Origin: Candidatus Latescibacterota bacterium
Lineage (GTDB): Bacteria; Latescibacterota; UBA2968; UBA8231
Length of the DNA stretch: 64,000 bases
Reading direction: 5' to 3'
Assembly: GCA_965206595.1 (NCBI GenBank)
Contig: OZ242214.1
Span: 1,056,001 to 1,120,000, forward strand
Shown: positions 3,987-24,067 of the stretch, in pieces
Layout: every line of letters begins with the position of its first letter
Position numbering within the stretch: the first letter of the stretch is position 1
Position numbers and translations under genes: made by a program
The notes under the pieces: generated by a model
The model's database searches: none
What the model was told of the DNA's origin: nothing
Seen by the model: the letters and a program-made list of their open reading frames with translations, nothing else

Positions 3987-6761
3987 ATGGCCCTCGATCC
4001 CTGGTACAAGGTTGTGACCCTTCGCAAGGAAGTGCGCGAGGGCCGCTCGTTCAGCCCGGACGAGTTCGCCATCGCCCTCGAACAGGTGCTCTCCAGAACC
4101 GCGCCCGAAGACTACAGCGACCCGGCCCAGTTCTTTTCGCGCACCTGTTTCACGCGGGCGTTGAAGGAGCACGCCGGCATGGTGCTCCGGCGCCTCGCCG
4201 GCGAGTCCGGGAACACGGCACCGGTCCTGACGCTGATCACCCAGTTCGGCGGCGGCAAGACGCATACCCTTACCGCGCTCTACCACCTGGCACAGGCCGG
4301 CGCAGACGCCTCCAAATACTCCGGGGTGGCCGATCTCCTGAAGGAGGCCGGGATGGCGGAAGCCCCCGCCGCCAGGGTCGGGGTATTCGTGGGCAATGCC
4401 TGGGACCCGTCCGAGGGCCGGGAAACCCCCTGGATCGATCTGGCCCGGCAGCTGGCAGGCGACGACGGCGTCGCCGCCCTGGGATCCGCGGCGCGGACCA
4501 CCCCCCCGGGAACCGAGGCGTTGGCCAAGGTGTGCGCTGCGGCGCAGGCCCCGGTGCTGCTGCTCTTCGACGAGGTGCTCAACTTCGTCAACCGCCACCG
4601 AGTCATGGCCGAGAGCTTCCACGCTTTTCTGCAGAACCTGACCGTCGCCGTCACCGGTACCACCCGGGCCGCCGCGGTCATCAGCCTTCCTCGCAGTCAG
4701 GTCGAAATGACCGACTGGGACCAGCAGTGGCAGGAACGGATAACCAAGGTGGTCCGACGCGTCGCCCGCGATCTGATCGCCAACGACGAGTCCGAGATCA
4801 GCGAGGTGGTCCGCCGCCGGCTCTTCGAGGATCTCGGCAACCCGCGCGTTCGCAGGAAGGTCGGCAAGGCCTACGCGGACTGGTGCTTTGAGCGTACGCC
4901 ACAACTCCCGGCCGAATGGCTCGCCGTCGACACCGCGGCGACGGAGGCCAAGGCAAGGGAATTCCTCAGGGGCCGGTTCGAGGCCAGCTATCCCTTGCAT
5001 CCGGCGACCCTGTCGGTTTTCCAACGCAAGTGGCGCGCCCTTCCCCAGTTTCAGCAGACCCGTGGAGCACTGGCCATGCTGGCGCAATGGATCTCATGGG
5101 CCGCCCGCGAGCAATTCGGAAAGGCGCGAACCGAGCCGCTGATCACCCTGGGATCGGCTCCCCTGGACGTGGCTGAATTCCGGGCGGTGGTCCTTGGACA
5201 GCTGGGCGAGACGCGGCTCGACGTGGCCGTAGAAGCCGATCTTGCAGGACCGATGGCGCATGCGAAGGCTCTGGATGCGGACGCGACCGGGGCTCTTCGC
5301 GACATCCATCGCCGGGTGGGCACGACCATTCTGTTCGAGTCCTCCGGGGGTCAGGTGGACAAGGAGGCTCATCTGCCGGAATTGCGCTTTGCCCTCGGCG
5401 AGCCCGAGGTCGACACAACCACCATCGACAACGCCGCCACAGCCCTGGAGAAATCGGGGTTCTTCATTCGCAGGGTCGGGACAGACGGCTATCGCATCCA
5501 TCATCAGGCGACGTTGAAGAAGGTCGTCAGCGATCGGCGGGCTTCCCTCGATGAAGAGACGGAGATCAAGCCTAGCATCCGCAAGCTCGTTGAAGGGGAG
5601 TTCAAACGCGGGGCAACCATTCCCGTGGTCTTCTTCCCGGAGGACAGCGCCGCGGTCCAGGATTCTCCACGCCTTGCGGTTATCGTCCTCGACCCCGAGG
5701 CGGAGTGGAGGGATGGCGACCAAGTGGTCGAGAGCATTGGCGATTGGACGAAGGAACGGGGCAAGTCTCCACGCCTCTACCCGGGCTCGCTGGTCTGGTG
5801 CGCCAGAAAACCCGGGCGGGAGCTCCGCGAGAAGGCCGAGCTGTGGCTCGCTTGGCAGCGGGTTGAACGGGAAGTGGCCGAAGGAGTCCTCGGCACCGAA
5901 TACGACCGCGCCGATCGCTCGGAGGTCCATGCCCGGGTTCGGGATTCCGAGGAAGCGGCCAGGGAGGAGGTATGGGCCGGATACCGCTTCGTAGCCCTCG
6001 CCGATTCCCAGGAGAGACACGGGCTCAAGGTCGTCGATCTGGGGGCAGGCCATGCCAGCGCTGGCCAGACGCTCTGCGGGCGGATCATCGGCGCGTTGAA
6101 GGCCGAGGCCCTGCTCAACGAGAATGTGGGTGCCGGTTATATCGACCGAAACTGGCCGCCGGCTTTCAAAGAGACCGGGGCTTGGCCCCTCACAAGTTTG
6201 CGCCAGAGCTTTCTCGACAGCTCGTTGACGAGGTTGGTCGACCCGGACGCGACCCTTCGGCGGCAGATCGTCGAGTTCGTGTCGAAGGGGGATTTCGGTC
6301 TGGCTTCAGGTACCAAGAACGGCGGTTTCGAACGGCTGTGGTACGCCGAGCAGGTAGGCCCGGAAGAAGCGGCGTTTGAACCAAGTGTTTTTCTGCTTAC
6401 CAGGGACAAAGCCAGGCAACTCAAAACGTCCCCCGGAGACCCGCCGCCGCCACAGCCGGGGCCGGCCCCAGGCCCGGGTCCGGAACCGCCTCCGGAACAG
6501 TCTCAAACGGAAACTGGTCCCGCGCCGGGTCCGGTCACTCGAAAAACGTCGCTCAGGCTGTCCGGGACCGTACCCTCGGAAGTCTGGAATCTCCTGGGGC
6601 GCAGACTCCTGCCCAAGCTGCGGTCCGGGGACGACCTCAGCGTAGGTATTGATTTTTCGGTCAGCGTCGGCTCGCAGTTTGCCCAGAACATGGAGACGGA
6701 GCTGCGGCAGATTCTCGATGATCTCGAGCTGGGCGACCGGGTCCGGGTCGAACGGTCGTAG
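3987..6761 (+). CDS. DUF499-type AAA+ ATPase
   Basis: N-terminal PWYKVVTLR, Walker A TQFGGGKTH, Walker B LLLFDE, YPLHP and FQQTRGAL blocks; Pro-rich linker before a small C-terminal domain; AGGAG RBS upstream. Confidence 0.9.
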   Translation: MALDPWYKVVTLRKEVREGRSFSPDEFAIALEQVLSRTAPEDYSDPAQFFSRTCFTRALKEHAGMVLRRLAGESGNTAPVLTLITQFGGGKTHTLTALYHLAQAGADASKYSGVADLLKEAGMAEAPAARVGVFVGNAWDPSEGRETPWIDLARQLAGDDGVAALGSAARTTPPGTEALAKVCAAAQAPVLLLFDEVLNFVNRHRVMAESFHAFLQNLTVAVTGTTRAAAVISLPRSQVEMTDWDQQWQERITKVVRRVARDLIANDESEISEVVRRRLFEDLGNPRVRRKVGKAYADWCFERTPQLPAEWLAVDTAATEAKAREFLRGRFEASYPLHPATLSVFQRKWRALPQFQQTRGALAMLAQWISWAAREQFGKARTEPLITLGSAPLDVAEFRAVVLGQLGETRLDVAVEADLAGPMAHAKALDADATGALRDIHRRVGTTILFESSGGQVDKEAHLPELRFALGEPEVDTTTIDNAATALEKSGFFIRRVGTDGYRIHHQATLKKVVSDRRASLDEETEIKPSIRKLVEGEFKRGATIPVVFFPEDSAAVQDSPRLAVIVLDPEAEWRDGDQVVESIGDWTKERGKSPRLYPGSLVWCARKPGRELREKAELWLAWQRVEREVAEGVLGTEYDRADRSEVHARVRDSEEAAREEVWAGYRFVALADSQERHGLKVVDLGAGHASAGQTLCGRIIGALKAEALLNENVGAGYIDRNWPPAFKETGAWPLTSLRQSFLDSSLTRLVDPDATLRRQIVEFVSKGDFGLASGTKNGGFERLWYAEQVGPEEAAFEPSVFLLTRDKARQLKTSPGDPPPPQPGPAPGPGPEPPPEQSQTETGPAPGPVTRKTSLRLSGTVPSEVWNLLGRRLLPKLRSGDDLSVGIDFSVSVGSQFAQNMETELRQILDDLELGDRVRVERS

Positions 6762-6845: not shown

Positions 6846-7748
6846 TTACCCGCGGTTCCCGCCGGCCCGCTTTCGCAGCTCTCCAAGGCGCCGCGAAAGC
6901 TTCTCCATCTCCTCCTCTATCAGGCGGATCTCGTCGCCGACGCTGATCTCGCCGTCGCGCTCGAGGTGCCGGCGCCGTTCCTCCGCCTCCTTTTCCGCCT
7001 CGGCCTCCGACATCGAGTTGATGATCACGCCGATGAACAGGTTGAGCATGATCATCGTTCCCAGCAGCACGAAGGAGACGAAGAAGGCCGCCCCGAGAAG
7101 CGGCCGGCCGCGCGAGGCTTCGCGCAGGTGGGCCTGGGCGAAGTCGCCGTAGTTCGGGTAGGCGTCGCTGCCGTACATCTGGATGTACATCACGTCGGTC
7201 CAGTCCTCGAGGGTCACCACCCGGAAGAGGGTGAGCAGGGCCGTCGACAGGTCCTGGAAGTGGACGGGGTCGTTGCCGCGGAACAGGAAAATTCCCATCA
7301 CCGCGTAGACGTAGAACAGCACCGCGAGCAGCAGGCCGACATAGCCCAGGGAGGGGATCGACTTGAGAAGCGAGCCGACCAGGAGCTGCAGCTTCGGCAC
7401 CGCGGTCACCAGCCGCAGGGCGCGCAGCACCCGCGCCAGCCGCAGCACCGCGGCGTACGGTCCCCCGACCGGCAGGAAGCAGACGACGACGATCAGGAAG
7501 TCGAAGACGTTCCAGGGGTCGGCGAAGTAGCGGTACCAGCGGCTCCCGTGGCGGGCGATCTTGAGCGCCGCCTCGACGGCGAAGATCCCCAGGACCAGTG
7601 CGTTGAGCCGGTGCAACAGGTCTCCGTGGGCCTCGACCAGGTCCCGCGAGGTTTCCAGCCCGACCAGCAGGGCGGCGAGCACGATTACCGCGAGGACTCC
7701 GTGCTGGAACCTGTCGGAGTCTACCAGTCTACCCAGCCGATCCGTCAC
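6846..7748 (-). CDS. Bacterial voltage-gated cation channel (BacNav/NaChBac family)
   Basis: Six TM segments, DPWNVFDF (S3), S4 LRLARVLRALRL, pore filter TLEDWTD, S6 MLNLFIGVIINSM, C-terminal coiled coil. Confidence 0.92.
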   Translation of the reverse strand: MTDRLGRLVDSDRFQHGVLAVIVLAALLVGLETSRDLVEAHGDLLHRLNALVLGIFAVEAALKIARHGSRWYRYFADPWNVFDFLIVVVCFLPVGGPYAAVLRLARVLRALRLVTAVPKLQLLVGSLLKSIPSLGYVGLLLAVLFYVYAVMGIFLFRGNDPVHFQDLSTALLTLFRVVTLEDWTDVMYIQMYGSDAYPNYGDFAQAHLREASRGRPLLGAAFFVSFVLLGTMIMLNLFIGVIINSMSEAEAEKEAEERRRHLERDGEISVGDEIRLIEEEMEKLSRRLGELRKRAGGNRG

Positions 7749-11375: not shown

Positions 11376-11777
11376 ATGCGAGACTGGTTCGAACTGAGGA
11401 GGATACTGACCGCCGGGGACGTCGCCCTGATGCTGGCCGTCGCCGCCGGGGCCTTGCTGGCGGCGTGGCGGCAGCCGCCGGCTGTCCAGGCGGCTTTCGC
11501 CCTGGTCGAGGTCGAAGGCAGGGAGGTGGCGGTCTATCCGCTGGCCAGCGACGGGAAGCACGTCCTGGAGGGCTGCAGCGGGGAGGTGGTGATCGAAATC
11601 CGCGATGGCGCCGCCCGTTTCGCCGAAGCCGGGTGCCGCAACCGGATCTGCGTCCTCACCGGGTGGATCGGGCGGCCCGGGGAGATCGCCGCCTGCGTGC
11701 CGAACGGGATGGTGCTGCTGCTGCGCGGGGAGGGGCCCACCAGGCGGCCTGGCGGCGTCGACGCCTTCAGCGGCTGA
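11376..11777 (+). CDS. NusG domain II-containing membrane-anchored protein (DUF1312-like)
   Basis: N-terminal TM then AGCRNRICVLTGWI...IAACVPN Cys pattern; directly upstream of a Gx-family gene, its usual partner. True start is the ATG at 11376 within the long ORF 10362-11777. Confidence 0.8.
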   Translation: MRDWFELRRILTAGDVALMLAVAAGALLAAWRQPPAVQAAFALVEVEGREVAVYPLASDGKHVLEGCSGEVVIEIRDGAARFAEAGCRNRICVLTGWIGRPGEIAACVPNGMVLLLRGEGPTRRPGGVDAFSG

Positions 11778-11790
11778 GCGGGTGCCCTCG

Positions 11791-12294
11791 ATGTCCGCCA
11801 GAGAGCTGACGCGGCTCGGCCTGCTCGCCGGCGCCGGCCTGATCCTCTTCCTGCTGGAGGCCGTGGCGCCCCGGCCCCTCCCGTGGATGAAGCTGGGGCT
11901 CGGGAACCTGCCCGTCGTCGTCGCCCTCGACCTCTTCGGGGGCGGGGCGGCCATCGCGGTCGCCGTGGTGAAGATCTTTGCCGGCGGCCTGGTCAGCGGC
12001 GGTTTCGCCAGTCCGGCTTTCGCCATCGGCGGCGGGGCGGGAATCGCCAGCGTCGCCGCCATGGCCCTGGCCAAACGGGTGGCTCCGGGTCTTTTCAGTC
12101 TGGTAGGTCTCAGCGTTCTCGGAGCGGTCACCCACCAGCTGACCCAGCTGCTGATCGCCCGTGTCTATCTCAATCACCCCGGCCTGCTCAACTTCCTGCC
12201 GCTGTTCATGCTCACGGGGCTGGTCAGCGGCTTAGCGATCGGCATGATCGCCCACTGCTGCGCCGCCCGGCTGCGCCGTCTCGACTGGAGCTGA
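11791..12294 (+). CDS. Gx transporter family / heptaprenyl diphosphate synthase component I-like membrane protein
   Basis: LEAVAPRPLPWMKLGLGN and SVLGAVTHQLTQL motifs; about 5 TM segments. Confidence 0.85.
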   Translation: MSARELTRLGLLAGAGLILFLLEAVAPRPLPWMKLGLGNLPVVVALDLFGGGAAIAVAVVKIFAGGLVSGGFASPAFAIGGGAGIASVAAMALAKRVAPGLFSLVGLSVLGAVTHQLTQLLIARVYLNHPGLLNFLPLFMLTGLVSGLAIGMIAHCCAARLRRLDWS

Positions 12295-12330
12295 CGGTGC
12301 CGGAGGCACGGGCTGCGGATTCGTTAGCGA

Positions 12331-12360
12331 TTGCCAGAAAGGATTAATCTCCTTTATTTG
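12331..12360 (+). promoter_or_regulatory. Candidate sigma70-like promoter with an AAAGGA-N6-TCCTTT inverted repeat in the spacer
   Basis: TTGCCA at 12331-12336, weak AT-rich -10 near 12354-12360, inverted repeat at 12338-12355; lies about 120 bp upstream of the 1594-aa gene. Confidence 0.4.
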
Positions 12361-12478
12361 TGCGGTTGAGCCGGCGCAGAAATCCGAATCCCGAGCGGCA
12401 TCTGACCGAAAGATCGGCAACGCTCCACAACCTCCGCGTTCGTTCGCAAGGCCTCCGACAAACCATCTTCCCAAGCGC

Positions 12479-15400
12479 ATGAGAATACGACCCGTCAGCG
12501 CGCTCACGGCTTTACTAGGCAGCGCTATCCTGGGGTCGAGCCCGCCCCTGTACGCGGAAGTCGATTTCAGGGGGCTCGAGCGGCTGGCCCCGAAGCAGCG
12601 TCTCGAAGAGACCGTCCAGTATCTCTCCGGTCTCGGCTCGCGCGTCGCCGGGTACCCCGGCGCCGAAGCCGCCGCCCTCTACATCCAGCAGCAGTTTCGC
12701 GACATCGGGCTGGACGGGATCTCCTTTCAGACGTACGACATCTCCATCCCGGTAGAGAAGGGTGGATTCATCGAGCTCGCCGGAGGGGATGCCGGGCGTT
12801 TTGCGATTCACGGACTGTGGCCCAACCTCGTGCGCACCTCCACGCTTCCCGACGGCGGCATCGACGCGAAGCTCGTGTACGGCGGCACCGGGGAATTCCC
12901 CGAGCTCTCCGGCACCGGGATCGAAGGTTCGGTCGTCCTTCTCGAGTTCAACTCCGGCGACAACTGGCTCAACTGTGCCTACCTCGGCGCCGCGGCGATT
13001 CTTTTCGCCGAGCCGGACTCGACTGTCTATCTCGAGGGGGAGAAGAAATTTCTCACCATGCCGCTCGACATGCCGCGCTTCTGGATCGCCAAGGAGGCCG
13101 CCGAGAACCTGCGCGGGCGGCTGGAGGAGGGCGGGTCCCTGCCGGTGCACCTCGAATACCGCATGGACTGGGAACGCCGGCCGGCCTGGAACATCCTCGG
13201 CGCCATTCCGGGGTACGACCCGCTCCTCAAGGAGGACACCATCGTCCTCGAGTCGTACTACGACGCCATGTCGGTGGTGCCGGCGCTGGCTCCGGGGGCC
13301 GAGCAGGCGGCCGGCATCGCCGCCCTGCTCGAGCTCGCAAGGTACTTCCGCGACAATCCGCCCTCGCGGACCGTGGTCTTTCTGGCAACGTCGGCGCACC
13401 ATCTCGCCCTTCGCGGCGTAGACGATTTCATCCAGCGCTACCTGCGCAAGGAAGACCCGTTCATCGATCGCATGGTCGTTCGCAGGGTCGTCGAGGCGGC
13501 GCTGGCGAGAGGCTTGATAGAGTCGGAGGGAGTCACCTACCGGCTGGGCAGCCTCGAGTTCCACGGCAAGGAGGGACTGATCCGTGAGATCGCCGACAAC
13601 GACACGATCCTGGTCCGTTCCGTCCTGAAGGCCGCCCTCGAAGAGGAGGACGCGGTGCGGCGGGAAGGGGACCGTTTCCTCGTCGCCGATGAATCCTTCT
13701 CCAGCCTCGAGAAGCTCGAAGCGGAGCTCGCCGACGACGAGGACCTCAGGCTCGCCTTTTACAAGGAATGGGTCAATCCCAAGGTCGATTCCCTCGGCGT
13801 GAAGCTGTTCGTCAGCCTGGACCTGTCGACGCAGACCGACGAGCTCGGCGTCTGGAACAGCAACACGAGCTTCTACTACAAGCGCTACTTCGCCCCCTTC
13901 GGCAAGAACTTCATGTCGTACGCCCGTGTCCTGAGCCGCGAGCTGGGGTACGACGACCGCGACATCCTCGTCAACGGCATCAGCCCGGAGGGCGGCAAGA
14001 GCTGGGAGACCTTCGTTCCCGGCGAGATTTCCGTGAACAGCGAGCTCGTCCTCGACACCGGCACGCCGGCCCTGGCCTTCGTCACCGTGAACGACGCCCG
14101 CTTTCTCGTCGACACCCCGCTCGACCGCGCCTCCGAGGTCAACCACGAGAACCTGGCGCGCCAGATCAGGGCGCTGGCCGGGATGTTTCACATGGCCTTC
14201 GAGGACCCGGAGCTGTTTCCCGATTTCAAGATGCGCCTGAAGGACACCATGCGCACCCTGAAGGGCAGGACGATGGTCTTCCCGAGGCGCAGCATCGTTC
14301 CCGACCTGGCGCGGCCCGGGGCGGTAGCCTCTGTCCGCAACGGCAAGAAGAAGTCCTACAAGGGGGTGCGGGGAGAACACTTCGAGGTGGTCGACTCCGA
14401 CGGCGCCTTCTACGACAACCGCATCCGCGTCAACTCCGTGCAGATCGAGGGGTACTTCATGGACCCGGCCACCGGCAGCGTCACCTACGCGCCGGACCGC
14501 GGCGAGCAGGGGGACGGGTCCTACCCGATGAAGATCTCCATGGACTGGCGCGACAAGCAGTGGATGGTGGTGCTGTTTCCGTGCGAGTCGTTCAACTTCT
14601 ACGACATCGTCGACCCGCGCTACCTCACCAAGCTTTCGCAGGTGACGATCTTCGACGAAACCAACACGACGCCGGTCGAGTACGGGTACACCATCGGAGA
14701 GGGCCCCTCCGCCAGGGGCGAGCCGGTGGGGGTGCTGTTCGCCCGCCCCGGGACCATCATCAAGCTCGGCTTCGGCGCCAGCATCCTCGGGTTCCGTTCC
14801 CTGCTGCTCAACTCCGAGTCGGCCGACGACATGGACCGCGCCCTCGGCGCCGGGTTCGCGATCCAGCCAGGGACCTCGTTCGCGCGCACCTCGTACCGCT
14901 CCGCCAGGGACATGTGGACTCTCGACGAGGCCCGCATGCGGGAGCTCAAGAGCTTCGCCATCGAGAACCAGCGCCTCAACGCCCTGCACGATCGCGCCGA
15001 GGAGGAGCTCGAAAAGGCGGAGCTGGCACTGGCATCGAAGGAGTGGGGAGAATTCGTCAAGTACACGCGCGCCGCCATCGGCCTGGAGTCGCGCGCCTAT
15101 CCCGACGTCAAGTCGACGCAGAACGACGTCATCCGGGGCATCATTTTCTTCATGGCCCTGGTCCTGCCCTGCGCCTACTTCGCCGAGCGCCTGCTGATCA
15201 CCGCGGCGACGATCAAGAATCAGATCCTGGGATTCGGGAGCATCTTCCTCGTCATCTGGATCATCCTGTCGGTGGTGCACCCGGCGTTCCAGCTCTCCAA
15301 TCCCTTCGTGATCCTGCTCGCCTTCGTGATCCTGACGCTGGCGGTGCTCGTCATCTGGCTCATCTCGGGCCGCTTCAACGAGCAGATGAAAAAGCTGCGC

Positions 15401-17263
15401 ACCGAGGTGGCGGTGATTCACGACACCGACGTATCCCGTTCCAGCGCCTCCCTGACCGCCTTCCTGCTCGGCATCTCCAACATGAAGCGGCGCAAGCTGC
15501 GAACTGTGCTCACCTTCACGACCCTGCTGCTGCTGACCTTCACGGTGCTCTCCTTCACGTCGATCCAGACGTCGTTGCGCTTCAATCAGATCGAGCGCGA
15601 CAACGAGGGCCTCTACGAGGGGATCATGATCCGCAGCAAGGCCTGGACCCCTCTCGAGGAGTCGGTGTACGAGTATGCCCTGAGCCACTTCGGCGACCGC
15701 GCCGTGGTTGCGCCGCGCAGTTGGTACGACAACAAGACCAAGGCCCACATCAAGATGAAGCGCGGCGTCGGCAGGCATAACGCCCTCGGGGTGCTCGGCC
15801 TGACGCCGCATGAGAGCGAGATCACCGGCCTCGACCGCGCCCTGATAGCGGGGCGCTGGTTCCGGCCCGGGGAGGAAAAGGTCTGCATCATTCCCAACGA
15901 CATGATCGGGACGACGCAGGACAAGCTCGACATCGACCTCGCCGCGGTAAATGTCGGCGAGGGGGTCGAGATCCGGGTGTTCGGCGATCAGTTCAGGATC
16001 GTCGGAGTGATCAGCTCGAAGAAGATGAAACAGCTGAAGGATCTCGACGACGAGATGATGACGCCGGCCGACTTCGCCGTCACCGGCGGCCAGGCGGTGC
16101 AGGAGATGGCGGAGGAGGAAAAGCGGGAGAAGGAGGGCCTCGAGGACGCCAAGGTCGTTATCAAGCCGTTCGTCCACCTCGAGCCGGCCAACACCCTGAT
16201 CGTTCCCTACAACACTTTGCGCAACATCGGCAGCGGTAACCCGCTGCAGTCGGTGGCGGTGCGCTTCGAGGACGAGGACGTGTCCGTGCGGCGCGAGATC
16301 GAGGAGTTCCTGTCGCGGCTCGCGGTCACCCTTTTCGCCGGAGTTCAGGAAGAGGGTGACGAGTACGTCCGCGTCTCCATCTACAGCTCGCTCGGCATGA
16401 CCTCCCTTTCGGGTATGGCCAACCTGTTCATTCCGATCCTGATCGCCGCCCTGATCGTGCTGAACACGATGATGGGGAGCGTGTACGAGCGCTTCCGCGA
16501 GATCGGCGTCTACTCGTCGGTCGGGCTTGCCCCGGCCCACATATCCTGGCTGTTCATGGCCGAGTCCTGCGTGTACGCCGTCCTCGGAGTGGTCGCAGGA
16601 TACCTCGCCGGACAGATCACGGCGACGACGCTGATCAAGTTCGATCTGGTCGCCGGCTTCACCCTCAACTACTCGTCGCTGTCCGCGGTGATGTCCTGCA
16701 TCCTGGTGATGGCCGTGGTCATGCTGTCGACGGCGTATCCGGCACGCAAGGCCTCGCAGATGGCGGTACCCGACGTCACCCGCAAGTGGCGACTGCCGCC
16801 GCCGTCGGGGGACGAGTGGCATTTCGAGTTTCCGTTCACGGTCAGTGGGCACGACGTCATCGGGCTCAGCGTATTCCTTATCGGCTACTTCGACTCGTAC
16901 AGCGAAGAGTCGATCGGCACCTTCTACACCGACGGGGCCAGCCTGCGGCGTTTCGACTCTGAGCACGGCGAAGGTTACTCGATCGACATGAACATCTGGC
17001 TGGCGCCCTTCGACCTCGGGGTGAGTCAGCACGTCGTCATCCGGGCCAACCCGGAATCCGAGCACAACATCTACTCGATATCGCTGGACATCCGCCGCCT
17101 CAGCGGCGAGGATGCCTCCTGGCGGCGGGTCAACCAGCGCTTCATGAACGTCATCCGCAAGCAGTTCCTGATCTGGCGGACGGTCGACGCCGAGGCCAAG
17201 GACTCGTACCGCGGTCAGGGGGTCGAGATCCTCGCGGGTGAGCGCACCGAGGTATCGGCTTAA
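12479..17263 (+). CDS. Exported M28-fold (PA-containing) peptidase-like domain fused to a MacB/FtsX-like permease
   Basis: Signal peptide; SRVAGYPG, PA-like insert, NILGAIPG, GIAALLELAR (M28 scaffold). TM cluster near aa 890-1030 with SNMKRRKLRTVLT (MacB N-terminal motif), a MacB-type periplasmic domain, and FtsX motif SVYERFREIGVYSSVGLAP...AYPARKAS. Confidence 0.85.
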   Translation: MRIRPVSALTALLGSAILGSSPPLYAEVDFRGLERLAPKQRLEETVQYLSGLGSRVAGYPGAEAAALYIQQQFRDIGLDGISFQTYDISIPVEKGGFIELAGGDAGRFAIHGLWPNLVRTSTLPDGGIDAKLVYGGTGEFPELSGTGIEGSVVLLEFNSGDNWLNCAYLGAAAILFAEPDSTVYLEGEKKFLTMPLDMPRFWIAKEAAENLRGRLEEGGSLPVHLEYRMDWERRPAWNILGAIPGYDPLLKEDTIVLESYYDAMSVVPALAPGAEQAAGIAALLELARYFRDNPPSRTVVFLATSAHHLALRGVDDFIQRYLRKEDPFIDRMVVRRVVEAALARGLIESEGVTYRLGSLEFHGKEGLIREIADNDTILVRSVLKAALEEEDAVRREGDRFLVADESFSSLEKLEAELADDEDLRLAFYKEWVNPKVDSLGVKLFVSLDLSTQTDELGVWNSNTSFYYKRYFAPFGKNFMSYARVLSRELGYDDRDILVNGISPEGGKSWETFVPGEISVNSELVLDTGTPALAFVTVNDARFLVDTPLDRASEVNHENLARQIRALAGMFHMAFEDPELFPDFKMRLKDTMRTLKGRTMVFPRRSIVPDLARPGAVASVRNGKKKSYKGVRGEHFEVVDSDGAFYDNRIRVNSVQIEGYFMDPATGSVTYAPDRGEQGDGSYPMKISMDWRDKQWMVVLFPCESFNFYDIVDPRYLTKLSQVTIFDETNTTPVEYGYTIGEGPSARGEPVGVLFARPGTIIKLGFGASILGFRSLLLNSESADDMDRALGAGFAIQPGTSFARTSYRSARDMWTLDEARMRELKSFAIENQRLNALHDRAEEELEKAELALASKEWGEFVKYTRAAIGLESRAYPDVKSTQNDVIRGIIFFMALVLPCAYFAERLLITAATIKNQILGFGSIFLVIWIILSVVHPAFQLSNPFVILLAFVILTLAVLVIWLISGRFNEQMKKLRTEVAVIHDTDVSRSSASLTAFLLGISNMKRRKLRTVLTFTTLLLLTFTVLSFTSIQTSLRFNQIERDNEGLYEGIMIRSKAWTPLEESVYEYALSHFGDRAVVAPRSWYDNKTKAHIKMKRGVGRHNALGVLGLTPHESEITGLDRALIAGRWFRPGEEKVCIIPNDMIGTTQDKLDIDLAAVNVGEGVEIRVFGDQFRIVGVISSKKMKQLKDLDDEMMTPADFAVTGGQAVQEMAEEEKREKEGLEDAKVVIKPFVHLEPANTLIVPYNTLRNIGSGNPLQSVAVRFEDEDVSVRREIEEFLSRLAVTLFAGVQEEGDEYVRVSIYSSLGMTSLSGMANLFIPILIAALIVLNTMMGSVYERFREIGVYSSVGLAPAHISWLFMAESCVYAVLGVVAGYLAGQITATTLIKFDLVAGFTLNYSSLSAVMSCILVMAVVMLSTAYPARKASQMAVPDVTRKWRLPPPSGDEWHFEFPFTVSGHDVIGLSVFLIGYFDSYSEESIGTFYTDGASLRRFDSEHGEGYSIDMNIWLAPFDLGVSQHVVIRANPESEHNIYSISLDIRRLSGEDASWRRVNQRFMNVIRKQFLIWRTVDAEAKDSYRGQGVEILAGERTEVSA

Positions 17264-17301
17264 GGGGCAGCGGTCAAGGGAGCGAGCGAAGGGAACCTCA
17301 A

Positions 17302-19719
17302 GTGCTGTTTCGCAAGAACAAGAACCCCAACGCGGAAATAGAAGAGTACCGGGATCTGCTCGATACCCCCGAGACGTTCGAGGAGGGGTTCACGACCAAG
17401 ACGATCCTCGGCGTCCTGTTCGTCGCCTTCGTCATGATTCCCGGGAACATCTACCTGGGGCTGATGGTCGGCGGCAATCTCGGCGCCGCCGCGGAGTGGG
17501 TGACGATCATCCTGTTCGCCGAGATCACCAAGCGCTCCTTCACGACGCTGAGGAAGCAGGAAGTCTACGTCCTCTACTACGTCGCGGCCGGGCTGATAGC
17601 CGCCGAGACCGGCTCCTTCCAGGGCCTGCTATGGAACCAGTACCTGCGCCAGTCCCCGGCGGCCAAGCAGTTCGGCATCGCCAACCTGATTCCCGACTGG
17701 TTCGCGCCCCCTCTCGAATCGGCCGCCCTGCTGCAGCGGACCTTCCTGCACTCCGACTGGCTGCTGCCGATCGCCCTGCTGGTCGCCGGCGTGCTGATCG
17801 CCCGCGTCTCCTGGTTCACCGCGGCGTACGCCCTCTTCCGCGTCAACTCCGATTACGAGCGCCTGCCCTTTCCCTTCGCCCCGGTAGCGGCCCAGGGGGC
17901 AACGGCGCTGGCCGAGACAACCCAGGGGGTCGAGTCCTGGCGCTGGCGGGTGTTTTCCGCAGGAGCGATGATCGGGCTCGTCTTCGGCACCCTCTACGTC
18001 GCCATCCCGGCGATTACCGGCGCCCTGCTCACCGAGCCGATCCAGCTGATACCGATCCCCTTCGTAGACTTCACCCAGGTCACCGGTAACTTCATCCCGG
18101 CGACGCCGCTGGGATTCACCGCCCATCTCGGACCGATCTTCGCCGGTCTGGTGGTCCCCTTCTGGGGGGTGATCGGGACCTTTCTCGGGGTCGTCGCGCA
18201 CTCTATCGCCAACCCCATCCTCTACAAGTACGGTCTTCTCGAGATCTGGCAGCCGGGGATGGGGGCGGTCGAGACCTTCTTCGTCAACAGCGTCGACTTC
18301 TGGATGAGCTTCGGCATCGGCACGACCCTGGCGATCGCCATCATCGGCCTCTACCAGGTCACCCGGGCCCTGATAGGCGCCCGCGATGCCGGAGGCAGGG
18401 TCGGGGAAGTAAGGCGCAGCTGGGAGGTCCCGAAGGGCCGGGGAGATTTTTCGCTGTGGACGGCGCTGGGGCTGTACGCGGTGGCCACGAGCGGCCTGAT
18501 CCTGATCGCCGCTTTCCTGCTGCCGGGGTTCAAGGGCTTCATCTGGTTCTTCCTGTTCTTCGGCTTCGTCTTCACCCCGTTCCAGTCGTTCGTCAACGCC
18601 CGCCTCTACGGCATGGTGGGGCAGAGCGTCGATATCCCGTTCGTACGCGAAGCGACCATCATCCTGTCCGGGTACCAGGGGGTCGATATCTGGTTCATAC
18701 CGTTCCCCCTGGGGAACTACGGCAGCCAGTGCCAGAAATTTCGCGAGATCGAGCTGACCGGAACCCGCTTCACCAGCATCATCAAGGCCGAGGTCTTCAT
18801 GGTGCCGATCGTGCTGTTCACCACCTTCCTGTACTCGTCCTACGTCTGGAAGCTGGCACCGATTCCCTCGGCGTCGTACCCGTACGCCCAGGTGATGTGG
18901 CGGCTTCAGGCCTTGCAGACCTGTCTCTGGTTCACCGGGACCCTGCGCAGCGAAATGGATTACCTGCCCGACCGCTCCGAGGCGACCTGGATGCCGGCGA
19001 ACCTGGTCGAGGGGGAGTGGTGGTACTGGCGGGTGCGGGCCGTCGACCCCGCCTGGCTCGAGTCGAAGGGCAAGCAGGGGCAGGCCGGACCGTGGTCCGA
19101 GAAGCGGGCTTTCTTCACCCATTTCGACGAGGGGGAGCCGGAGCTGCCAGAGCATCCTCCCGGCGCCATGAAGAGTGTTCCGGATGTGGGCGCAGCGGCG
19201 GTTGCCCTGACCGGACCGGCGGTGACCGCGGTCTCTCCGGCAGTCGACATCGGCATTATCCGCACCCCGAGACCGGAGCTGGTGGTGCGTTCAGACGAAC
19301 CGCTTCCCGAGGGCTGGGAGTACTACTACGCCCTCGACACCGACCCCAACTTCTCCAGTCCGTGGATCCAGCGCACTACCGACGAGCCGTGGCTGTTCCG
19401 CGCCATCAAGCCGAACATCATCGCCGCCGGCGCCATCGTCGGCCTGGGGAGCTACATCCTGCTGTCGATTTTCGGCCTGCCGATCCTGCTGGTCTTCGGG
19501 TACGTCCGGGCCCTGACCACGATCCCGCACTGGATGGTAACCGAGGTCATCGGCGCCATGCTGGCCCGCTACTATTTCTGGGGCAAGTACGGCAAGAAGG
19601 AGTGGCGGCTGTACGCGCCGGTGCTTGCGGTCGGGTTCGCCTGCGGCATGGCGCTCATGGGGATGGCCGCGATCTCCATCGCCCTGATCCAGAAGTCGGT
19701 CTCCGTACTCATCTTCTGA
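17302..19719 (+). CDS. OPT-superfamily-like multi-pass membrane transporter with a large soluble insert
   Basis: FEEGFTTKTILG, AEWVTIILFAE, ERLPFPFAPV (OPT-like LPFP motif) and many TM helices; about 150-aa hydrophilic insert at roughly 18945-19390. Confidence 0.75.
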   Translation: MLFRKNKNPNAEIEEYRDLLDTPETFEEGFTTKTILGVLFVAFVMIPGNIYLGLMVGGNLGAAAEWVTIILFAEITKRSFTTLRKQEVYVLYYVAAGLIAAETGSFQGLLWNQYLRQSPAAKQFGIANLIPDWFAPPLESAALLQRTFLHSDWLLPIALLVAGVLIARVSWFTAAYALFRVNSDYERLPFPFAPVAAQGATALAETTQGVESWRWRVFSAGAMIGLVFGTLYVAIPAITGALLTEPIQLIPIPFVDFTQVTGNFIPATPLGFTAHLGPIFAGLVVPFWGVIGTFLGVVAHSIANPILYKYGLLEIWQPGMGAVETFFVNSVDFWMSFGIGTTLAIAIIGLYQVTRALIGARDAGGRVGEVRRSWEVPKGRGDFSLWTALGLYAVATSGLILIAAFLLPGFKGFIWFFLFFGFVFTPFQSFVNARLYGMVGQSVDIPFVREATIILSGYQGVDIWFIPFPLGNYGSQCQKFREIELTGTRFTSIIKAEVFMVPIVLFTTFLYSSYVWKLAPIPSASYPYAQVMWRLQALQTCLWFTGTLRSEMDYLPDRSEATWMPANLVEGEWWYWRVRAVDPAWLESKGKQGQAGPWSEKRAFFTHFDEGEPELPEHPPGAMKSVPDVGAAAVALTGPAVTAVSPAVDIGIIRTPRPELVVRSDEPLPEGWEYYYALDTDPNFSSPWIQRTTDEPWLFRAIKPNIIAAGAIVGLGSYILLSIFGLPILLVFGYVRALTTIPHWMVTEVIGAMLARYYFWGKYGKKEWRLYAPVLAVGFACGMALMGMAAISIALIQKSVSVLIF

Positions 19720-19741
19720 TTCGCCACAGGTGCGTTGCCAA

Positions 19742-20746
19742 ATGGCTGACCGTGGAGTCGAGTGGGCGGACTTCGGATGGCAGGGGATTTATCTGCGCGT
19801 GCCGGATGACTGGAACCTGGGCAAGGTGGACGGCGACGCGAAGAGCGGCTACGCCCGTCTCGACGACGCCGAGATCGTCCGCGCCGAAGTCGAATGGCGG
19901 GAGACGCCGGACCGGGGACGCAGACTGCCGGTCCCCGACCTCGTAGAGCGCTACCTCGACAAGCTGGCGAAAAAAGCGGAGAAGGCAGACACTCCCTTCT
20001 CGGTGACGAGGCAGGCAAAGTTCCTGCGCGACAAGCGCTGGCTCGAGGGGGCCGAGTACGAGGCCTTTACCTGGCGCGCCGACTACCTCGCCTACAATCT
20101 GGCGCGCGCCTGCCCCGACTGCGGGCGCATCCTGCTGCTGCGCGTTCTCGCCCGGCTCACGGAGAACCTCGAAGAGCTCGCCGACCGGGTCTTCCGCTCC
20201 GTCGCCTGCCACAGCGCCGACAGGATGCGCTACTGGAGCGTCTACGGCATGACCTTCCGAGTGCCCGAGGAGTTCGCCCTCTCCAAGCACGAGCTCAAAT
20301 CCGGCAATATCCAGATGACCTTCGAGAGGAAGAACCAAAGCTGCCGGGTACAGCGCCTCAGCATGGCCCAGATGCTGCTCAAGGGGACGACCCTCGAGGA
20401 GTGGTATCCCAACTTCTTCCGCAAGGAGCTGCGCGATTTCAACTGCGACGTCGCCGAGACCGGGGTGGGGGATCACCAGGGACTGCGGGTGACCGGGCGG
20501 CCGCGCAGCCGTTTGCGCCAGCTGCTGCGGCCCCTGCCGCTGCTCAACCCGCGTCCCCGCCAGCACCTCGACGCCCTCGTCTGGCACTGCGAGGAGGGGA
20601 ACCGAATCTGCGTCGTCGAACACCTTTACAAGAGGGAAAAGGAGCGCGACGACCTCACCGACCGCCTGAGCGCCGTCTATGTTTGCCACCCGCAAGAAAC
20701 CGAAGCTGACGCGCGAGGCGATGCTCAACTCGCGTCCGGCGCGTAA
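19742..20746 (+). CDS. Hypothetical cytoplasmic protein with two PsbP/Mog1-like repeats
   Basis: Internal repeat FGWQGIYLRVPDDWNL versus WSVYGMTFRVPEEFAL; CPDC motif; strong GC3 coding bias; operonic position. Confidence 0.7.
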   Translation: MADRGVEWADFGWQGIYLRVPDDWNLGKVDGDAKSGYARLDDAEIVRAEVEWRETPDRGRRLPVPDLVERYLDKLAKKAEKADTPFSVTRQAKFLRDKRWLEGAEYEAFTWRADYLAYNLARACPDCGRILLLRVLARLTENLEELADRVFRSVACHSADRMRYWSVYGMTFRVPEEFALSKHELKSGNIQMTFERKNQSCRVQRLSMAQMLLKGTTLEEWYPNFFRKELRDFNCDVAETGVGDHQGLRVTGRPRSRLRQLLRPLPLLNPRPRQHLDALVWHCEEGNRICVVEHLYKREKERDDLTDRLSAVYVCHPQETEADARGDAQLASGA

Positions 20747-21116
20747 CGACCTGCTTCAGTGGGATAAGACGGAAAGCGGCGAAGCCCGCATAACCGTCAC
20801 CCGCATCGACTCCTGGAAGGTGCGGCTGCTTTCCAAGCTGTTCTACGTCCCCAGGAAGCGCACCATCACTCTCGACGAAGTCGGCACCGAGATCTGGCAG
20901 ATGTGCAACGGCCGCACCTCGGTCGGGCAGATGATCGAGGAGCTGCGCGTCAAGTACAAGCTCGACCGCAAGGAGGCGGAGGTGTCGCTGCTGCAGTACC
21001 TGAAGACGCTGGGCGAGAAGCGATTCGTCGGCTTCGTCCTCGAGGGGACGGAGCAGTCGGAGCGGCAGCAGAAGTATTCCAGGGGGGACGCGAGCGGCAA
21101 GAGGTGGGAGAAATAG
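20679..21116 (+). CDS. PqqD-family / RiPP recognition element (RRE)-like protein
   Basis: ITLDEVGTEIWQMCNGRTSVGQMIEEL...LLQYLKTLGEKRFV matches the winged-helix PqqD pattern LD..G..IW...DG..TV..I...L. Confidence 0.85.
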   Translation: MFATRKKPKLTREAMLNSRPARNDLLQWDKTESGEARITVTRIDSWKVRLLSKLFYVPRKRTITLDEVGTEIWQMCNGRTSVGQMIEELRVKYKLDRKEAEVSLLQYLKTLGEKRFVGFVLEGTEQSERQQKYSRGDASGKRWEK

Positions 21117-21165
21117 TGCCTTCCCGCGTAAATCGGGGTCGAAACGAAGGCGAGGAGGAGCCACG

Positions 21166-21193
21166 TCCTTTCGCCGATGCATCGGCGAAAGGA
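21166..21193. repeat. Perfect 28-bp palindrome downstream of the PqqD gene
   Basis: TCCTTTCGCCGATGCATCGGCGAAAGGA is its own reverse complement; flanking CCACG/CGTGG can extend the stem. Confidence 0.85.
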
Positions 21194-21338
21194 TTCGCGT
21201 GGATGTGCGGGCGCGGGCACTTGCCGCCCTGAACGTCACCCGCCGCTCGTGGCCCCGGTTCTTCCCCTCGGCGGGAGGCCAGAATCTCCTGCCACCTTTC
21301 CACTTCAGGATACGAAACCGGTACGCTAGGCGGCAGAG

Positions 21339-21926
21339 ATGACCGGAACCCCCGACTGGCAGCACAGGTTCGCCCGGTTTCTGTCGCACCTGTTCAGTCC
21401 GGCGGCCATGGCTGTCTGGGTGTTCGCCGGACTGGGGATCCTGCGCCCAGGCGAGACCGACTGGAAGGCCCTGGGGATTGCCCTCGCCCTGTTCACCCTG
21501 CTTCCCTGCGCCGTCATGGTGCTGCTGCGCCGGCGAGGCCTCGAGGACGTGTACGCTCCCGAGCCGGCCCTCAGGCAGCGCATCCTCCTGATGGGAACAG
21601 TCTGCTATCTGACAGGTTTCCTGGTTCTTTCGGCCGTGGATGCGGCACCGACCATGACCTGGAGCGCCGCCTCCATCACCTTGGCCGCGGCCGCCGTCCG
21701 GGTGATCGACCGCTTCTGGAAGATCAGCATACATTCGGTCGGGGTCGCCGCGGGGGTGTTCGTCCTCGTGAAGGTGGGCGGCCCCGGGCAGTGGCCCCTG
21801 CTTGCCGCCCCTCCCCTCGTCGCCTGGGCGCGGCTGCGGCTCGGGGCGCACACGGTCCCGCAGCTGCTTGCCGGGATTCTCCTCGGGGCCCTGGTGCCCG
21901 CCCTTCTCCTGCCCCATTTCCGCTGA
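21339..21926 (+). CDS. PAP2-like membrane protein (putative lipid phosphate phosphatase)
   Basis: About 6 TMs; WKISIHS and WARLRLGAHT resemble PAP2 C2/C3 motifs; no C1 motif evident. Confidence 0.65.
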   Translation: MTGTPDWQHRFARFLSHLFSPAAMAVWVFAGLGILRPGETDWKALGIALALFTLLPCAVMVLLRRRGLEDVYAPEPALRQRILLMGTVCYLTGFLVLSAVDAAPTMTWSAASITLAAAAVRVIDRFWKISIHSVGVAAGVFVLVKVGGPGQWPLLAAPPLVAWARLRLGAHTVPQLLAGILLGALVPALLLPHFR

Positions 21927-21931
21927 TCGCC

Positions 21932-24067
21932 ATGCACACCGTGACCGGCCTGGTCAGCCGCCTGACCTTCCACAATCCCGACAACGGCTACACGATCGCC
22001 CAGATCGAGCCGGAGCCAGAAAAAGGGGAACGGCCACCCGAGGGGATTACGGTGGTCGGAGTCATGACCACGGTCGCCGAGGGACAGACCATCGAGGTCA
22101 CGGGCACCTGGGAAGACCATCCCAAGTACGGAAGGCAGCTCAAGCTCGAGTCCTGCCGGGCGGTCTTTCCGACCACCGAGGAGGGGATCCGGCGGTTTCT
22201 CGGGTCGGGACTGGTAAAGGGGGTGGGGAAGAAGTTCGCCGAGCGCATCGTCGCCCATTTTGGCGGGGACACCCTCAAGGTGCTCGAGGAGAATCCCCGG
22301 CGCCTGCTCGAGGTACCGGGACTGGGCCGCAAGCGGGCGGGGATGCTGGCGCGGGCATGGGCGGGGCAGCGCCGGATGAGGGACACCATGGTTTTTCTGC
22401 AGTCGCACGGAGTCGGGTCTGCAGCCGCCGTGAAGATTTTCCGGAAGTACGAGCAGGAGGCGATCACCAAGGTGAGAGAGAATCCCTACCGGCTGCAGAG
22501 GGACATCGACGGGATCGGGTTCGTGACCGCCGACGCCGTCGCCTCGCAGCTCGGGATCGCGCGCAACGCACCGCAGAGGATCCAGGCGGGAATCCTCTAC
22601 CTTTTGGAATCCGCGGCCGGGGAGGGACACGTGTTCCTGCCGCAGTCCGAGGTCGTCGAAAAGGGGAGCGAGCTTCTGCAGGTCGGCGCCGAGCTGTTTC
22701 CAGCGGCCCTGGAGGCCCTGGACGGCGAACGCCAGATCGTACGCGACCAGGAGCGCTGCTTCCTGCCGTATCTCTATCACTCGGAGGTGAAGGTCGCCGC
22801 GGCCCTGGAACGGCTGCTGCGAACCGAAGGGGCCGATGCGGAGTTCGGCGAAGACCCGGGAACGGAGCTGGATCTGAGCGCCAGTCAGCGCAGGGCGGTC
22901 GAGACCGCCCTGCGGGAGAAGGTGGTGGTCCTGACGGGCGGACCCGGTACCGGGAAGACGACGGTTACGCAGGTGATCCTCCGCCATTTCGAGCAAGGGG
23001 GCCTGCGGGTCGCCCTCTGTTCCCCCACGGGTCGGGCGGCCAAGCGGCTCGCCGAGGCGACCGGCCGCGAGGCGAAAACCATCCACCGGCTGCTGGAGTT
23101 CATGCCCGCGGAACGCAGGTTCCGCCGCGGCCGCAACGACCCGGTCGAAGCCGATGCCGTAATCGTCGACGAGGCCTCGATGATCGACATCCCGCTGATG
23201 CACGCCCTGCTGCGCGCCCTGTCGCCGCATGTCCGCCTGCTGCTGGTCGGCGACGCGGACCAGCTGCCGTCCGTGGGCCCGGGGAACGTCATTGGGGACG
23301 TCATCTCCTCCCGGCGCGTCCCGGTTGCGCGGCTGACCGAGATCCACCGGCAGGAGCGCCGCAGCCGCATCGTCGTCAACGCCCACCGCATCAACGCCGG
23401 CGACTGGCCGGAGCTGAGCAACAGCCGCGACGGCGACTTCTTCTTCGTCGAGGAGGAGAATCCCCCGGAGGCCGCGGCCATGATCTCCGATCTCGTGGGC
23501 AGCCGCCTGCCTGCCCACGGCGACTACGACCCGGTCGGCGACATCCAGGTGCTGACCCCGATGTACCGGGGGGAGACCGGGGCCATCAACCTCAACCGCC
23601 TGCTGCAGCAGCGGCTCAACCCGGGGGGCAGAGTCTCCCGGACAGGGGAACGGGAGCTGCGTGTCGGCGACAAGGTGCTGCAGATCCGCAACAACTACGA
23701 GCGCGCCGTCTTCAACGGCGACCTCGGGCGCATACTCGCTTTCGACCCCGAGGAAGGCTCGATCCGGGTGGGTTTCGACAGCGGCGTCTCATGCGAGTAC
23801 GGGGCCAACTCCCTCGACGAGATCGTGCTGGCCTACGCCATCAGCGTCCACCGCGCCCAGGGTTCGGAGTTCCCCGTCGTCGTGCTGCCCCTGACCACCC
23901 AGCATTACCCGATGCTGCAGCGCAACCTGCTGTACACCGCGGTCACGCGCGCCCGTTCCCTGCTGGTCGTCGTCGGCGGCAGGAGAGCCCTGGGCAGGGC
24001 GATTTCCAACGACGAGGTCGCCAAGCGCTACACCGCCCTCGGCGAGCGGTTGCGGGGTTCGAACTGA
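21932..24067 (+). CDS. recD2: ATP-dependent RecD-like DNA helicase (RecD2/YrrC)
   Basis: FHNPDNGYTI, HPKYGRQL, HhH motifs GVGKKFAERIV, Walker A TGGPGTGKTT, VDEASM, GDADQLPSVGPG, YAISVHRAQGSEF, LLYTAVTRA. Confidence 0.95.
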   Translation: MHTVTGLVSRLTFHNPDNGYTIAQIEPEPEKGERPPEGITVVGVMTTVAEGQTIEVTGTWEDHPKYGRQLKLESCRAVFPTTEEGIRRFLGSGLVKGVGKKFAERIVAHFGGDTLKVLEENPRRLLEVPGLGRKRAGMLARAWAGQRRMRDTMVFLQSHGVGSAAAVKIFRKYEQEAITKVRENPYRLQRDIDGIGFVTADAVASQLGIARNAPQRIQAGILYLLESAAGEGHVFLPQSEVVEKGSELLQVGAELFPAALEALDGERQIVRDQERCFLPYLYHSEVKVAAALERLLRTEGADAEFGEDPGTELDLSASQRRAVETALREKVVVLTGGPGTGKTTVTQVILRHFEQGGLRVALCSPTGRAAKRLAEATGREAKTIHRLLEFMPAERRFRRGRNDPVEADAVIVDEASMIDIPLMHALLRALSPHVRLLLVGDADQLPSVGPGNVIGDVISSRRVPVARLTEIHRQERRSRIVVNAHRINAGDWPELSNSRDGDFFFVEEENPPEAAAMISDLVGSRLPAHGDYDPVGDIQVLTPMYRGETGAINLNRLLQQRLNPGGRVSRTGERELRVGDKVLQIRNNYERAVFNGDLGRILAFDPEEGSIRVGFDSGVSCEYGANSLDEIVLAYAISVHRAQGSEFPVVVLPLTTQHYPMLQRNLLYTAVTRARSLLVVVGGRRALGRAISNDEVAKRYTALGERLRGSN

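Follow-up and report, generated by a model that had tools for sequence, protein, structure and literature searches.

We analysed a window of 64,000 nucleotides (nt) from the genome of a Candidatus Latescibacterota bacterium (hereafter G000; contig OZ242214.1, positions 1,056,001 to 1,120,000), and focus here on four co-oriented genes on its forward strand, named P1 to P4, which are very probably components of a conserved inner-membrane machine whose ATP-driven motor is encoded elsewhere in the same genome. P1 (12479..17263) encodes a protein of 1594 amino acids (aa), P2 (17302..19719) one of 805 aa and P4 (20679..21116) one of 145 aa. P3 spans 19742..20746, in an open reading frame (ORF) that opens at 19730. 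The ATG at 19742 is taken as the start of P3 because all 36 aligned homologues begin at or downstream of the Met that it encodes, and because contigs from four of four RNA-library runs, derived from a relative with 95–99% identity, lack 1 nt of the window sequence at 19738, between the GTG and the ATG and thus in the P2–P3 spacer. With this start, re-measurement reproduced the layout given in an initial annotation of the sequence, with 38 bp between P1 and P2, 22 bp between P2 and P3, P3 and P4 overlapping by 68 bp, and a strong bias in third-position G+C content (GC3 of 0.90, 0.89, 0.85 and 0.90 for P1 to P4, respectively). The G+C content of the region around the cluster is 62–70%. Chance adjacency of the four genes is ruled out by synteny across two phyla, as described below.

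P1 has an N-terminus resembling a signal peptide and seven transmembrane (TM) segments by hydropathy, three of them within aa 884–951 and the others at aa 1007–1025, 1305–1323, 1355–1373 and 1401–1419. In the predicted topology, aa 27–883 and approximately aa 1026–1304 are extracytoplasmic, and the final 165 residues face the cytoplasm. The Pfam family FtsX matches aa 1317–1428 (1.1e-14), and a search against PDB sequences aligned MacB (5lil) with aa 1239–1428 (1e-10). The four-helix topology of FtsX, in which TM1 is followed by an extracytoplasmic domain and then TM2–4, is present, with a loop of 280 aa between TM1 and TM2; the MacB_PCD profile matches at 2.2e-4 and 22 bits, below its cut-off of 27. 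This MacB/FtsX-type module (aa 1007–1428, 15497..16762) is linked by the three extra TM helices (aa 884–951, 15128..15331) to a large ectodomain (aa 27–883, 12557..15127), and is followed by a C-terminal cytoplasmic domain (aa 1430–1594, 16766..17260).

The ectodomain, or head, is PA/M28-like, with aa 26–325 aligning with PA-domain M28 aminopeptidases. The Pfam family Peptidase_M28 (PF04389) matches at 8.9e-8 and 32.5 bits, above its cut-off of 21.3, but its coverage ends after the first 78 of the 193 positions in the profile. A phmmer search of the head against PDB sequences retrieved 2ek8 (8.6e-8, over aa 38–308), YwaD (6hc6, 1.2e-6) and, weakly, Nicalin (0.0085). In a residue-level alignment the M28 motifs are substituted, with SHHD replaced by SYYD, GA(D)DD by GAEQ and EE by HH. 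An alignment of 65 P1 homologues, drawn from two phyla and the paralogues of G000, extended this picture to the wider family. At the position of His97 (in what we take to be the residue numbering of the Aeromonas enzyme, as for the other site positions) we see Tyr in 50 sequences, Phe in 12, Ser in two and Ala in one. The Glu151 position is occupied by His in 57, Asn in four and Tyr in four, and the Glu152 position by His in 33, Phe in 14, Gly in six, Tyr in five, Ala in four and Ser in two. The canonical M28 His or Glu-Glu pair is kept in none of the 65 homologues, nor are the Asp and His ligands further along the sequence conserved as such within this set. Since no homologue retains the canonical His or Glu-Glu pair, the head is classed as a pseudo-peptidase throughout the family.

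The cytoplasmic tail of P1 is conserved in 66 of the 80 loci surveyed below, at 30–87% identity by tblastn. Its AlphaFold2 (AF2) model is an alpha+beta domain comprising a five-stranded sheet and three helices, with a mean predicted local distance difference test score (pLDDT) of 90.0. Structural matches to Aha1 C-terminal/START-like and KA1 domains are middling (Z 8.2–8.9 with VIA-align), and Foldseek retrieved START/Bet v 1 proteins with TM-scores of only ~0.3; because the structural matches are no better than this, the tail is left without a family name. Taken together, P1 is a MacB/FtsX-type permease subunit, of type VII among ATP-binding cassette (ABC) systems, with a periplasmic PA/M28-like head and a conserved cytoplasmic tail.

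P2 is a polytopic protein with at least 10 TM segments by hydropathy, and gave no match to Pfam (E<=0.1) or NCBIfam. Its family is large: over 4187 of the clusters scored at 90% identity belong to it, and at 50% identity it comprises 970 clusters. Among 120 relatives listed, orthologues are 68–93% identical to P2, and the named relatives carry the source labels Latescibacterota, Gemmatimonadota/Gemmatimonadetes or plain “bacterium”. Seven of 39 aligned family members match the OPT family of Pfam (PF03169), the best of which, P0200 (1.3e-17, 64 bits), a distant full-length relative, in turn matches P2 at 1e-66 over aa 28–546. This transitive homology supports the assignment of P2 to a divergent branch of the OPT superfamily, as judged at the sequence level. 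The core of the protein is formed by aa 25–550 and aa 685–805, separated by an insert of ~130 aa (approximately aa 555–685) that is missing from shorter relatives of ~650 aa. Some family members (P0125, P0142 and others) are longer, at 900–1080 aa, and carry extra domains, which are Reg_prop in four members and a WD40-type propeller, a PDZ domain and an FGE-sulfatase domain in one each. These domains are probably located in the loop that carries the insert of P2. A second permease of the same gene clusters is represented by the DUF6785 proteins. P2 itself does not match DUF6785/DUF6784 (PF20581/PF20580), and jackhmmer kept the P2 and DUF6785 sets of G000 separate.

P3 has no Pfam match, and neither a signal peptide nor a TM segment is predicted. 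Its AF2 model (mean pLDDT 87.6) consists of two Mog1/PsbP-fold halves, each an antiparallel beta-sheet with flanking helices. The N-terminal half (aa 10–161) aligns with CyanoP (2xb3) at Z 13.4, with a root-mean-square deviation of 3.0 over 138 aligned residues, and the C-terminal half (aa 164–326) aligns with BT_1490 (3hlz) at Z 13.0, with Mog1p at Z 12.0–12.1 (12.1 for 1jhs) and with Tsi3 at Z ~12. For the whole protein, the best match is to the tandem type VI secretion system immunity proteins TplEi/Tli4, and Foldseek also retrieved PsbP and SciW; the SciW/EagT6 chaperones align at Z 9.6–10.5 and DcrB at Z 11.2. By this model, P3 is a cytoplasmic tandem Mog1/PsbP-fold protein. P4 matches the Pfam family PqqD (PF05402) at 3.8e-13 and 50 bits, against a cut-off of 23.4, and has a conserved basic N-terminal extension preceding the PqqD domain. 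The family assignments proposed for all four proteins in the initial annotation are thus borne out, for P2 by way of its relatives and for P3 by structure prediction.

The distribution of these genes was surveyed using one genome per species and 570 P2 relatives, from which the best 80 loci were kept. In 70 of these, P2 is directly preceded by a P1-type gene in the same orientation. Among the 10 loci with no upstream P1, seven offer under 2.3 kb of sequence 5' of P2. P3 is present in 32 of the 80 loci and P4 in 29, and P4 stands behind P3 in 29 of 29. Of the three loci with P3 only, two stop at a contig edge, and the third, L070, has no P4 match. The 29 complete P1–P4 sets, which confirm the proposed co-occurrence of the four genes in other genomes, comprise 20 orthologous loci of the Latescibacterota type and nine of the Desulfobacterota type. 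In families f2, f3 and f5, P3 and P4 are found together but apart from P1 and P2, and P4 also follows P3 in L107–L110, where the pair is detached from P1–P2. No conserved neighbour gene common across families was found around the detached pairs (L107–L112). The genes for these two cytoplasmic proteins, P3 and P4, are closely coupled and accompany the system as a unit. A further arrangement is seen in the cultured strain Desulfogranum marinum DSM 2058 (G061, L082), which has a five-gene core with no adjacent P3–P4, and whose P3-like gene (C177:45344-46120, E 5.7e-22) is located on a different contig. Other cultured carriers are Desulforhabdus sp. TSK and Desulfacinum hydrothermale DSM 13146.

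A Pfam scan of ten ORFs between positions 3987 and 29620 of the window detected no ABC ATPase. An earlier claim that none is encoded in or beside the operon is therefore upheld, but the suggestion drawn from it, of a machine that lacks an ATPase and is possibly energised by the OPT-like protein, is not, because a cognate ATPase is consistently linked to these genes elsewhere, a finding that the same annotation had named as telling against its proposal. In 12 Desulfobacterota-type loci a pair of genes for a small FtsX partner (sFtsX) and an ATPase lies directly 5' of P1, with ATPase identities of 71–100%. The gene order in such loci, from Pfam assignments on L093, is sFtsX (227 aa), ABC ATPase (250 aa), P1, DUF6785/DUF6784, a P2-like protein, a 201-aa protein, a P3-like protein and PqqD. 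Within the phylum of G000 itself, three genomes (G005 and G011 of family f8, and G003 of f6) have the contiguous, co-oriented arrangement DUF6785-P1-P2-P3-P4-sFtsX-ATPase. G000 contains one close copy of the pair, encoded in trans at G000:C1:4577083-4578607 on the reverse strand, 3.5 Mb from the window, between genes for a GT2 glycosyltransferase and an anthranilate synthase. The ATPase of this pair (G000:C1:4577083-4577871, reverse strand), identified by profile and homology searches as LolD/MacB/FtsE-type, is 69% identical to the Desulfobacula ATPase of locus L093; its best NCBIfam models are LolD, MacB, YbbA, DarD, DevA and FtsE, all below cut-off. The sFtsX protein of G000 has 234 aa and four TM segments, with only ~55 residues between TM1 and TM2. 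As the genes are grouped in varied ways between families, the window holds one of several splits of a seven- or eight-gene system. We hold the composition of the machine, with a motor encoded in trans in G000, to be very probable.

We also assessed how widely the system occurs in the phylum, using 61 genomes, each at least 85% complete, and thresholds of E<=1e-100 for P2 and E<=1e-25 for sFtsX. P3 and P2 are each present in 51 of the 61 genomes and sFtsX in 50, and both P3 and sFtsX are single-copy in every genome that carries them. Ten genomes, each belonging to family f9, lack all three genes (G006, G012, G016, G020, G023, G025, G027, G029, G031 and G033, which are 88–97% complete), and one 89%-complete genome lacks a match for sFtsX only. 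Because the 61 genomes are related and f9 forms a single clade, this pattern represents approximately one loss event and not 61 independent observations. Family f9 may offer a natural loss clade for comparative work.

The genome of the window organism contains five full-length P1-type genes and one decayed one, together with three full-length P2-type genes and fragments. A P1 paralogue with 40% identity stands before a P2 paralogue, and another has a DUF6785/DUF6784 protein and a sulfatase downstream. The closest paralogue (68% identical; L009, G000:C1:3761071-3769317) is followed after 40 bp by a gene for a 944-aa UPF0182 membrane protein, with no OPT-like permease. We also see a single fusion ORF of 2215 aa (G000:C1:1304597-1311244; L013:6597-13244) that combines the P1 architecture, including FtsX, with DUF6785 and DUF6784; this natural fusion argues that P1-type and DUF6785 proteins would work in contact. 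A seemingly decayed paralogous cluster was noted at L014 (G000:C1:5082461-5086235), where fragments that are P1-like (265 and 358 aa), P2-like or derived from DUF6785 stand in a row.

DUF6785 itself is greatly expanded, with 47 matches in G000, 38 of which span at least 437 of 498 profile positions (for example at G000:C1 931253-932767 and 4846253-4847767), compared to none in 14 control genomes. As only two or three DUF6785 genes adjoin a P1 gene, most of these permeases must work without P1. Of the 29 genome-wide copies of FG-GAP/ASPIC, nine lie within three genes of a DUF6785 gene, and further neighbours encode GHL10, UxuA, enolase-superfamily and PhyH enzymes. This gives a rough hint that the wider DUF6785 family imports carbohydrate-derived nutrients.

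The reading that we favour, with moderate confidence, is that P1–P4 constitute the larger part of a conserved inner-membrane machine that unites a type VII ABC system with OPT permeases, and in which the head feeds the permease and net transport is import. In such a machine, P1 and sFtsX would form a Lol-like heterodimer on an ATPase dimer, and ATP hydrolysis would shift the pseudo-peptidase head by mechanotransmission. The head could capture a peptide-like or oligomeric substrate in the periplasm and would then feed or gate the OPT-fold permease, with import as the net direction. P3 and P4 may act at the cytoplasmic face, as an adaptor, a regulator or a receiver of cargo. The feeding and import mechanism taken on its own is put forward tentatively. 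The same caution applies to the more specific idea, which we find conceivable yet doubtful, of an as yet undescribed kind of hybrid primary/secondary transporter, wherein a MacB-type ABC mechanotransducer would use ATP to drive a built-in periplasmic pseudo-peptidase ‘hand’ that loads or gates OPT-fold permeases, and the PqqD/PsbP-fold pair would read peptide cargo or couple the motor to it. One motor might then serve several giant-subunit paralogues; in G000, a single motor pair stands against five full-length P1 genes. The expansion of DUF6785, with its 38 long matches, fits a transporter family.

Several observations weigh against the import machine. Three loci (L053, L060 and L091) lack P1 despite having 10 kb of upstream sequence, P3–P4 are not adjacent to P1–P2 in many families, and the query used retrieved no P3 homologue from the genomes of L084 and L085, both of them cultured Desulfobacterota with the core. 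The permease assignment is indirect, as P2 itself falls below Pfam OPT detection and a P2-family profile gave no match at E<=1 against PDB sequences. The RNA-library contigs described below indicate presence in an RNA library, and do not prove transcription, a single transcript or its ends. Moreover, the system is near-universal in the phylum, even in genomes of 1.8–2.6 Mb, and a housekeeping function in the envelope would explain this phylum-wide single-copy distribution at least as well as nutrient uptake would. Lastly, the type VII ABC systems described so far carry out extraction or export, or drive partners in the periplasm, and no importer is known among them.

The main alternative is that the genes encode a machine for envelope biogenesis or extraction, of the kind represented by Lol, FtsEX or YbbAP. 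Here, the motor and head would extract, export or remodel an envelope component such as a lipid, a lipoprotein or a hydrophobic peptide or protein, with the OPT-fold proteins serving as a conduit or scaffold and P3–P4 as cargo chaperones. As far as titles and the opening parts of abstracts tell, all characterised type VII ABC systems do act outward or on periplasmic partners, and the occurrence of P2, P3 and sFtsX in 50–51 of 61 genomes, with single matches for P3 and sFtsX and with small genomes included, suggests a core function. Mog1/PsbP-fold Eag chaperones bind TM segments, and P3 resembles both SciW/EagT6 and DcrB at the Z-scores given above; the P1 tail weakly resembles START/Aha1-type folds that bind lipids or other ligands, although at Z 8–9 this match is only middling. 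On the other hand, members of the OPT family are generally known as importers, no cargo gene is conserved in the cluster, and the 38 long DUF6785 matches beside carbohydrate-catabolic genes point to uptake. We regard this alternative as unlikely overall, while giving it real weight.

Far less probable is the proposal of the initial annotation, i.e. a complex without an ATPase, energised by its OPT-like subunit, in which a peptide would be recognised at both membrane faces. It accords with the lack of an ATPase gene in or beside the operon in the window, and orphan FtsX permeases do exist as a named family (ADOP, TIGR03434), to which there is a weak match here. It is at odds with the existence of a specific ATPase/sFtsX pair, of which sFtsX co-occurs phyletically with the system and which, in other genomes, forms an unbroken run with these genes. 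Scarcely credible, in our view, is a cluster for the maturation and export of a ribosomally synthesised and post-translationally modified peptide (RiPP) or other peptide natural product, with the PqqD-like protein as a leader-peptide recognition element. The Pfam match of P4 to PqqD and its weak likeness to the lasso, GeoRSP and PQQ chaperones would suit such a role, but every NCBIfam RiPP-chaperone model scores below its cut-off. As the initial annotation had reported, enzymes for RiPP maturation are absent from the operon and its surroundings, with no radical SAM, YcaO or lasso enzyme among the ten ORFs scanned; nor does a radical SAM, YcaO, lasso cyclase or protease gene stand among these neighbours or in the L093 cluster. 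The flanking gaps were inspected for precursor candidates, with no systematic precursor search across loci, and gave only Arg-rich short ORFs that look like chance reading frames. A single-copy core shared by a whole phylum is also unlike a natural-product cluster.

Compared to known systems, the import machine that we favour is closest to the type VII ABC systems (MacAB-TolC, LolCDE, FtsEX-EnvC and YbbAP-TesA). P1 has the same FtsX/MacB module of TM1, a periplasmic domain and TM2–4, the second FtsX subunit could give a heterodimer like that of LolC and LolE, the ATPase resembles LolD, MacB, YbbA and FtsE, and ATP hydrolysis could move a large periplasmic element of P1. The differences are considerable. 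P1 has its periplasmic partner built in, as an 857-aa PA/M28 head attached via three extra TM helices, and carries the 165-aa cytoplasmic tail, whereas sFtsX is almost devoid of a periplasmic domain. OPT-fold permeases are co-encoded and sometimes fused, a PsbP-fold/PqqD pair is present, and in G000 the motor genes are unlinked. P2 is polytopic like the OPT/Yellow-Stripe-like transporters (PF03169, TC 2.A.67), and its entire core shows homology to PF03169-matching proteins, but it lies below Pfam detection and has an extra loop domain of ~130 aa; to our knowledge, a genetic lock to an ABC-type partner, as seen for P2, has not been described for any OPT protein.

The head of P1 recalls Nicalin, Nicastrin and the transferrin receptor, in which an M28/PA fold minus the catalytic metal site is anchored to the membrane in a multi-subunit membrane complex, and by analogy a receptor role may be inferred for it. 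P1 differs from these proteins in being bacterial and fused to FtsX, and the homology seen is that of a shared fold family. P4 has a PqqD domain above the Pfam cut-off like PqqD/RRE proteins, but differs from them in having no RiPP enzyme or precursor, in its basic N-terminal extension, and in always being coupled to a tandem PsbP-fold protein within a membrane-transport gene set. Both halves of P3 share the fold of the Mog1/PsbP proteins (PsbP/CyanoP, Tli4/TplEi, Tsi3, Eag/DUF1795 and DcrB), and its tandem layout is that of TplEi/Tli4; P3 is distinguished by its cytoplasmic location, by an identity of only 4–18% in structural alignments, and by a family-specific Arg/Pro-rich loop at aa 255–282. 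In line with the view of the initial annotation that no characterised system has such a composition, no account of this gene set was found in the literature, including work on DUF6785 and type VII ABC systems, at the level of titles and abstract beginnings. All members are annotated as “hypothetical” or by DUF names. The contiguous eight-gene cluster recurs in Desulfobacterota, including cultured strains, and its occurrence in cultured sulfate reducers makes the system experimentally approachable. Should the ABC motor indeed work with OPT-fold permeases, ATP hydrolysis would be coupled in a new way to the fold of a secondary transporter, type VII ABC systems would gain a fifth functional class, and a PqqD domain would have a role outside RiPP biosynthesis.

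With regard to transcription, contigs 95–99% alike to the window were available from four RNA libraries of one study, labelled as sponge metagenome. They fall on P1 and P2, on the first part of P3 and on the stretch that P3 shares with P4, and two of them bridge the P2–P3 junction. The P1–P2 junction is unbridged at 95% likeness; loose ends at 17259 indicate that the contigs run on into diverged intergenic sequence. The earliest among those listed begins at 12355, although contigs cannot mark the start of a transcript. The flanks at 11500–12201 and 20977–22000 have no RNA contig, and such missing cover is not evidence. Upstream of P1, the candidate promoter proposed in the initial annotation was not recovered, in that a sigma-70 consensus scan of positions 11500–22000 gave no sites and only an AT-rich patch (~12330..12362, forward strand), the sole candidate for a promoter region, is apparent on inspection of the 184-bp gap 5' of P1. 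A terminator scan found four sites where 5.9 were expected, none of them at the end of the operon. The downstream palindrome is perfect, as described previously, comprising 28 nt at 21166..21193 with two 14-nt arms that are 100% complementary. It begins 50 nt past the stop codon of P4, is not followed by a T-run, and may form a hairpin at the end of the transcript. A repeated element or conserved operator is ruled out as an explanation for it, since the genome has no second copy and related loci lack it.

Among the ten ORFs scanned around the cluster, the neighbours include a RelA/SpoT gene on the reverse strand and genes for a Hpre_diP_synt_I-family membrane protein, a weak PAP2 match and RecD2. 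Further upstream, at 6846–7748 on the reverse strand, lies a gene for a 300-aa protein that matches Ion_trans (5.7e-48) and PKD_channel, identifying it as a bacterial cation channel of the voltage-gated type; it adjoins a class I/II aminotransferase gene and RelA/SpoT.

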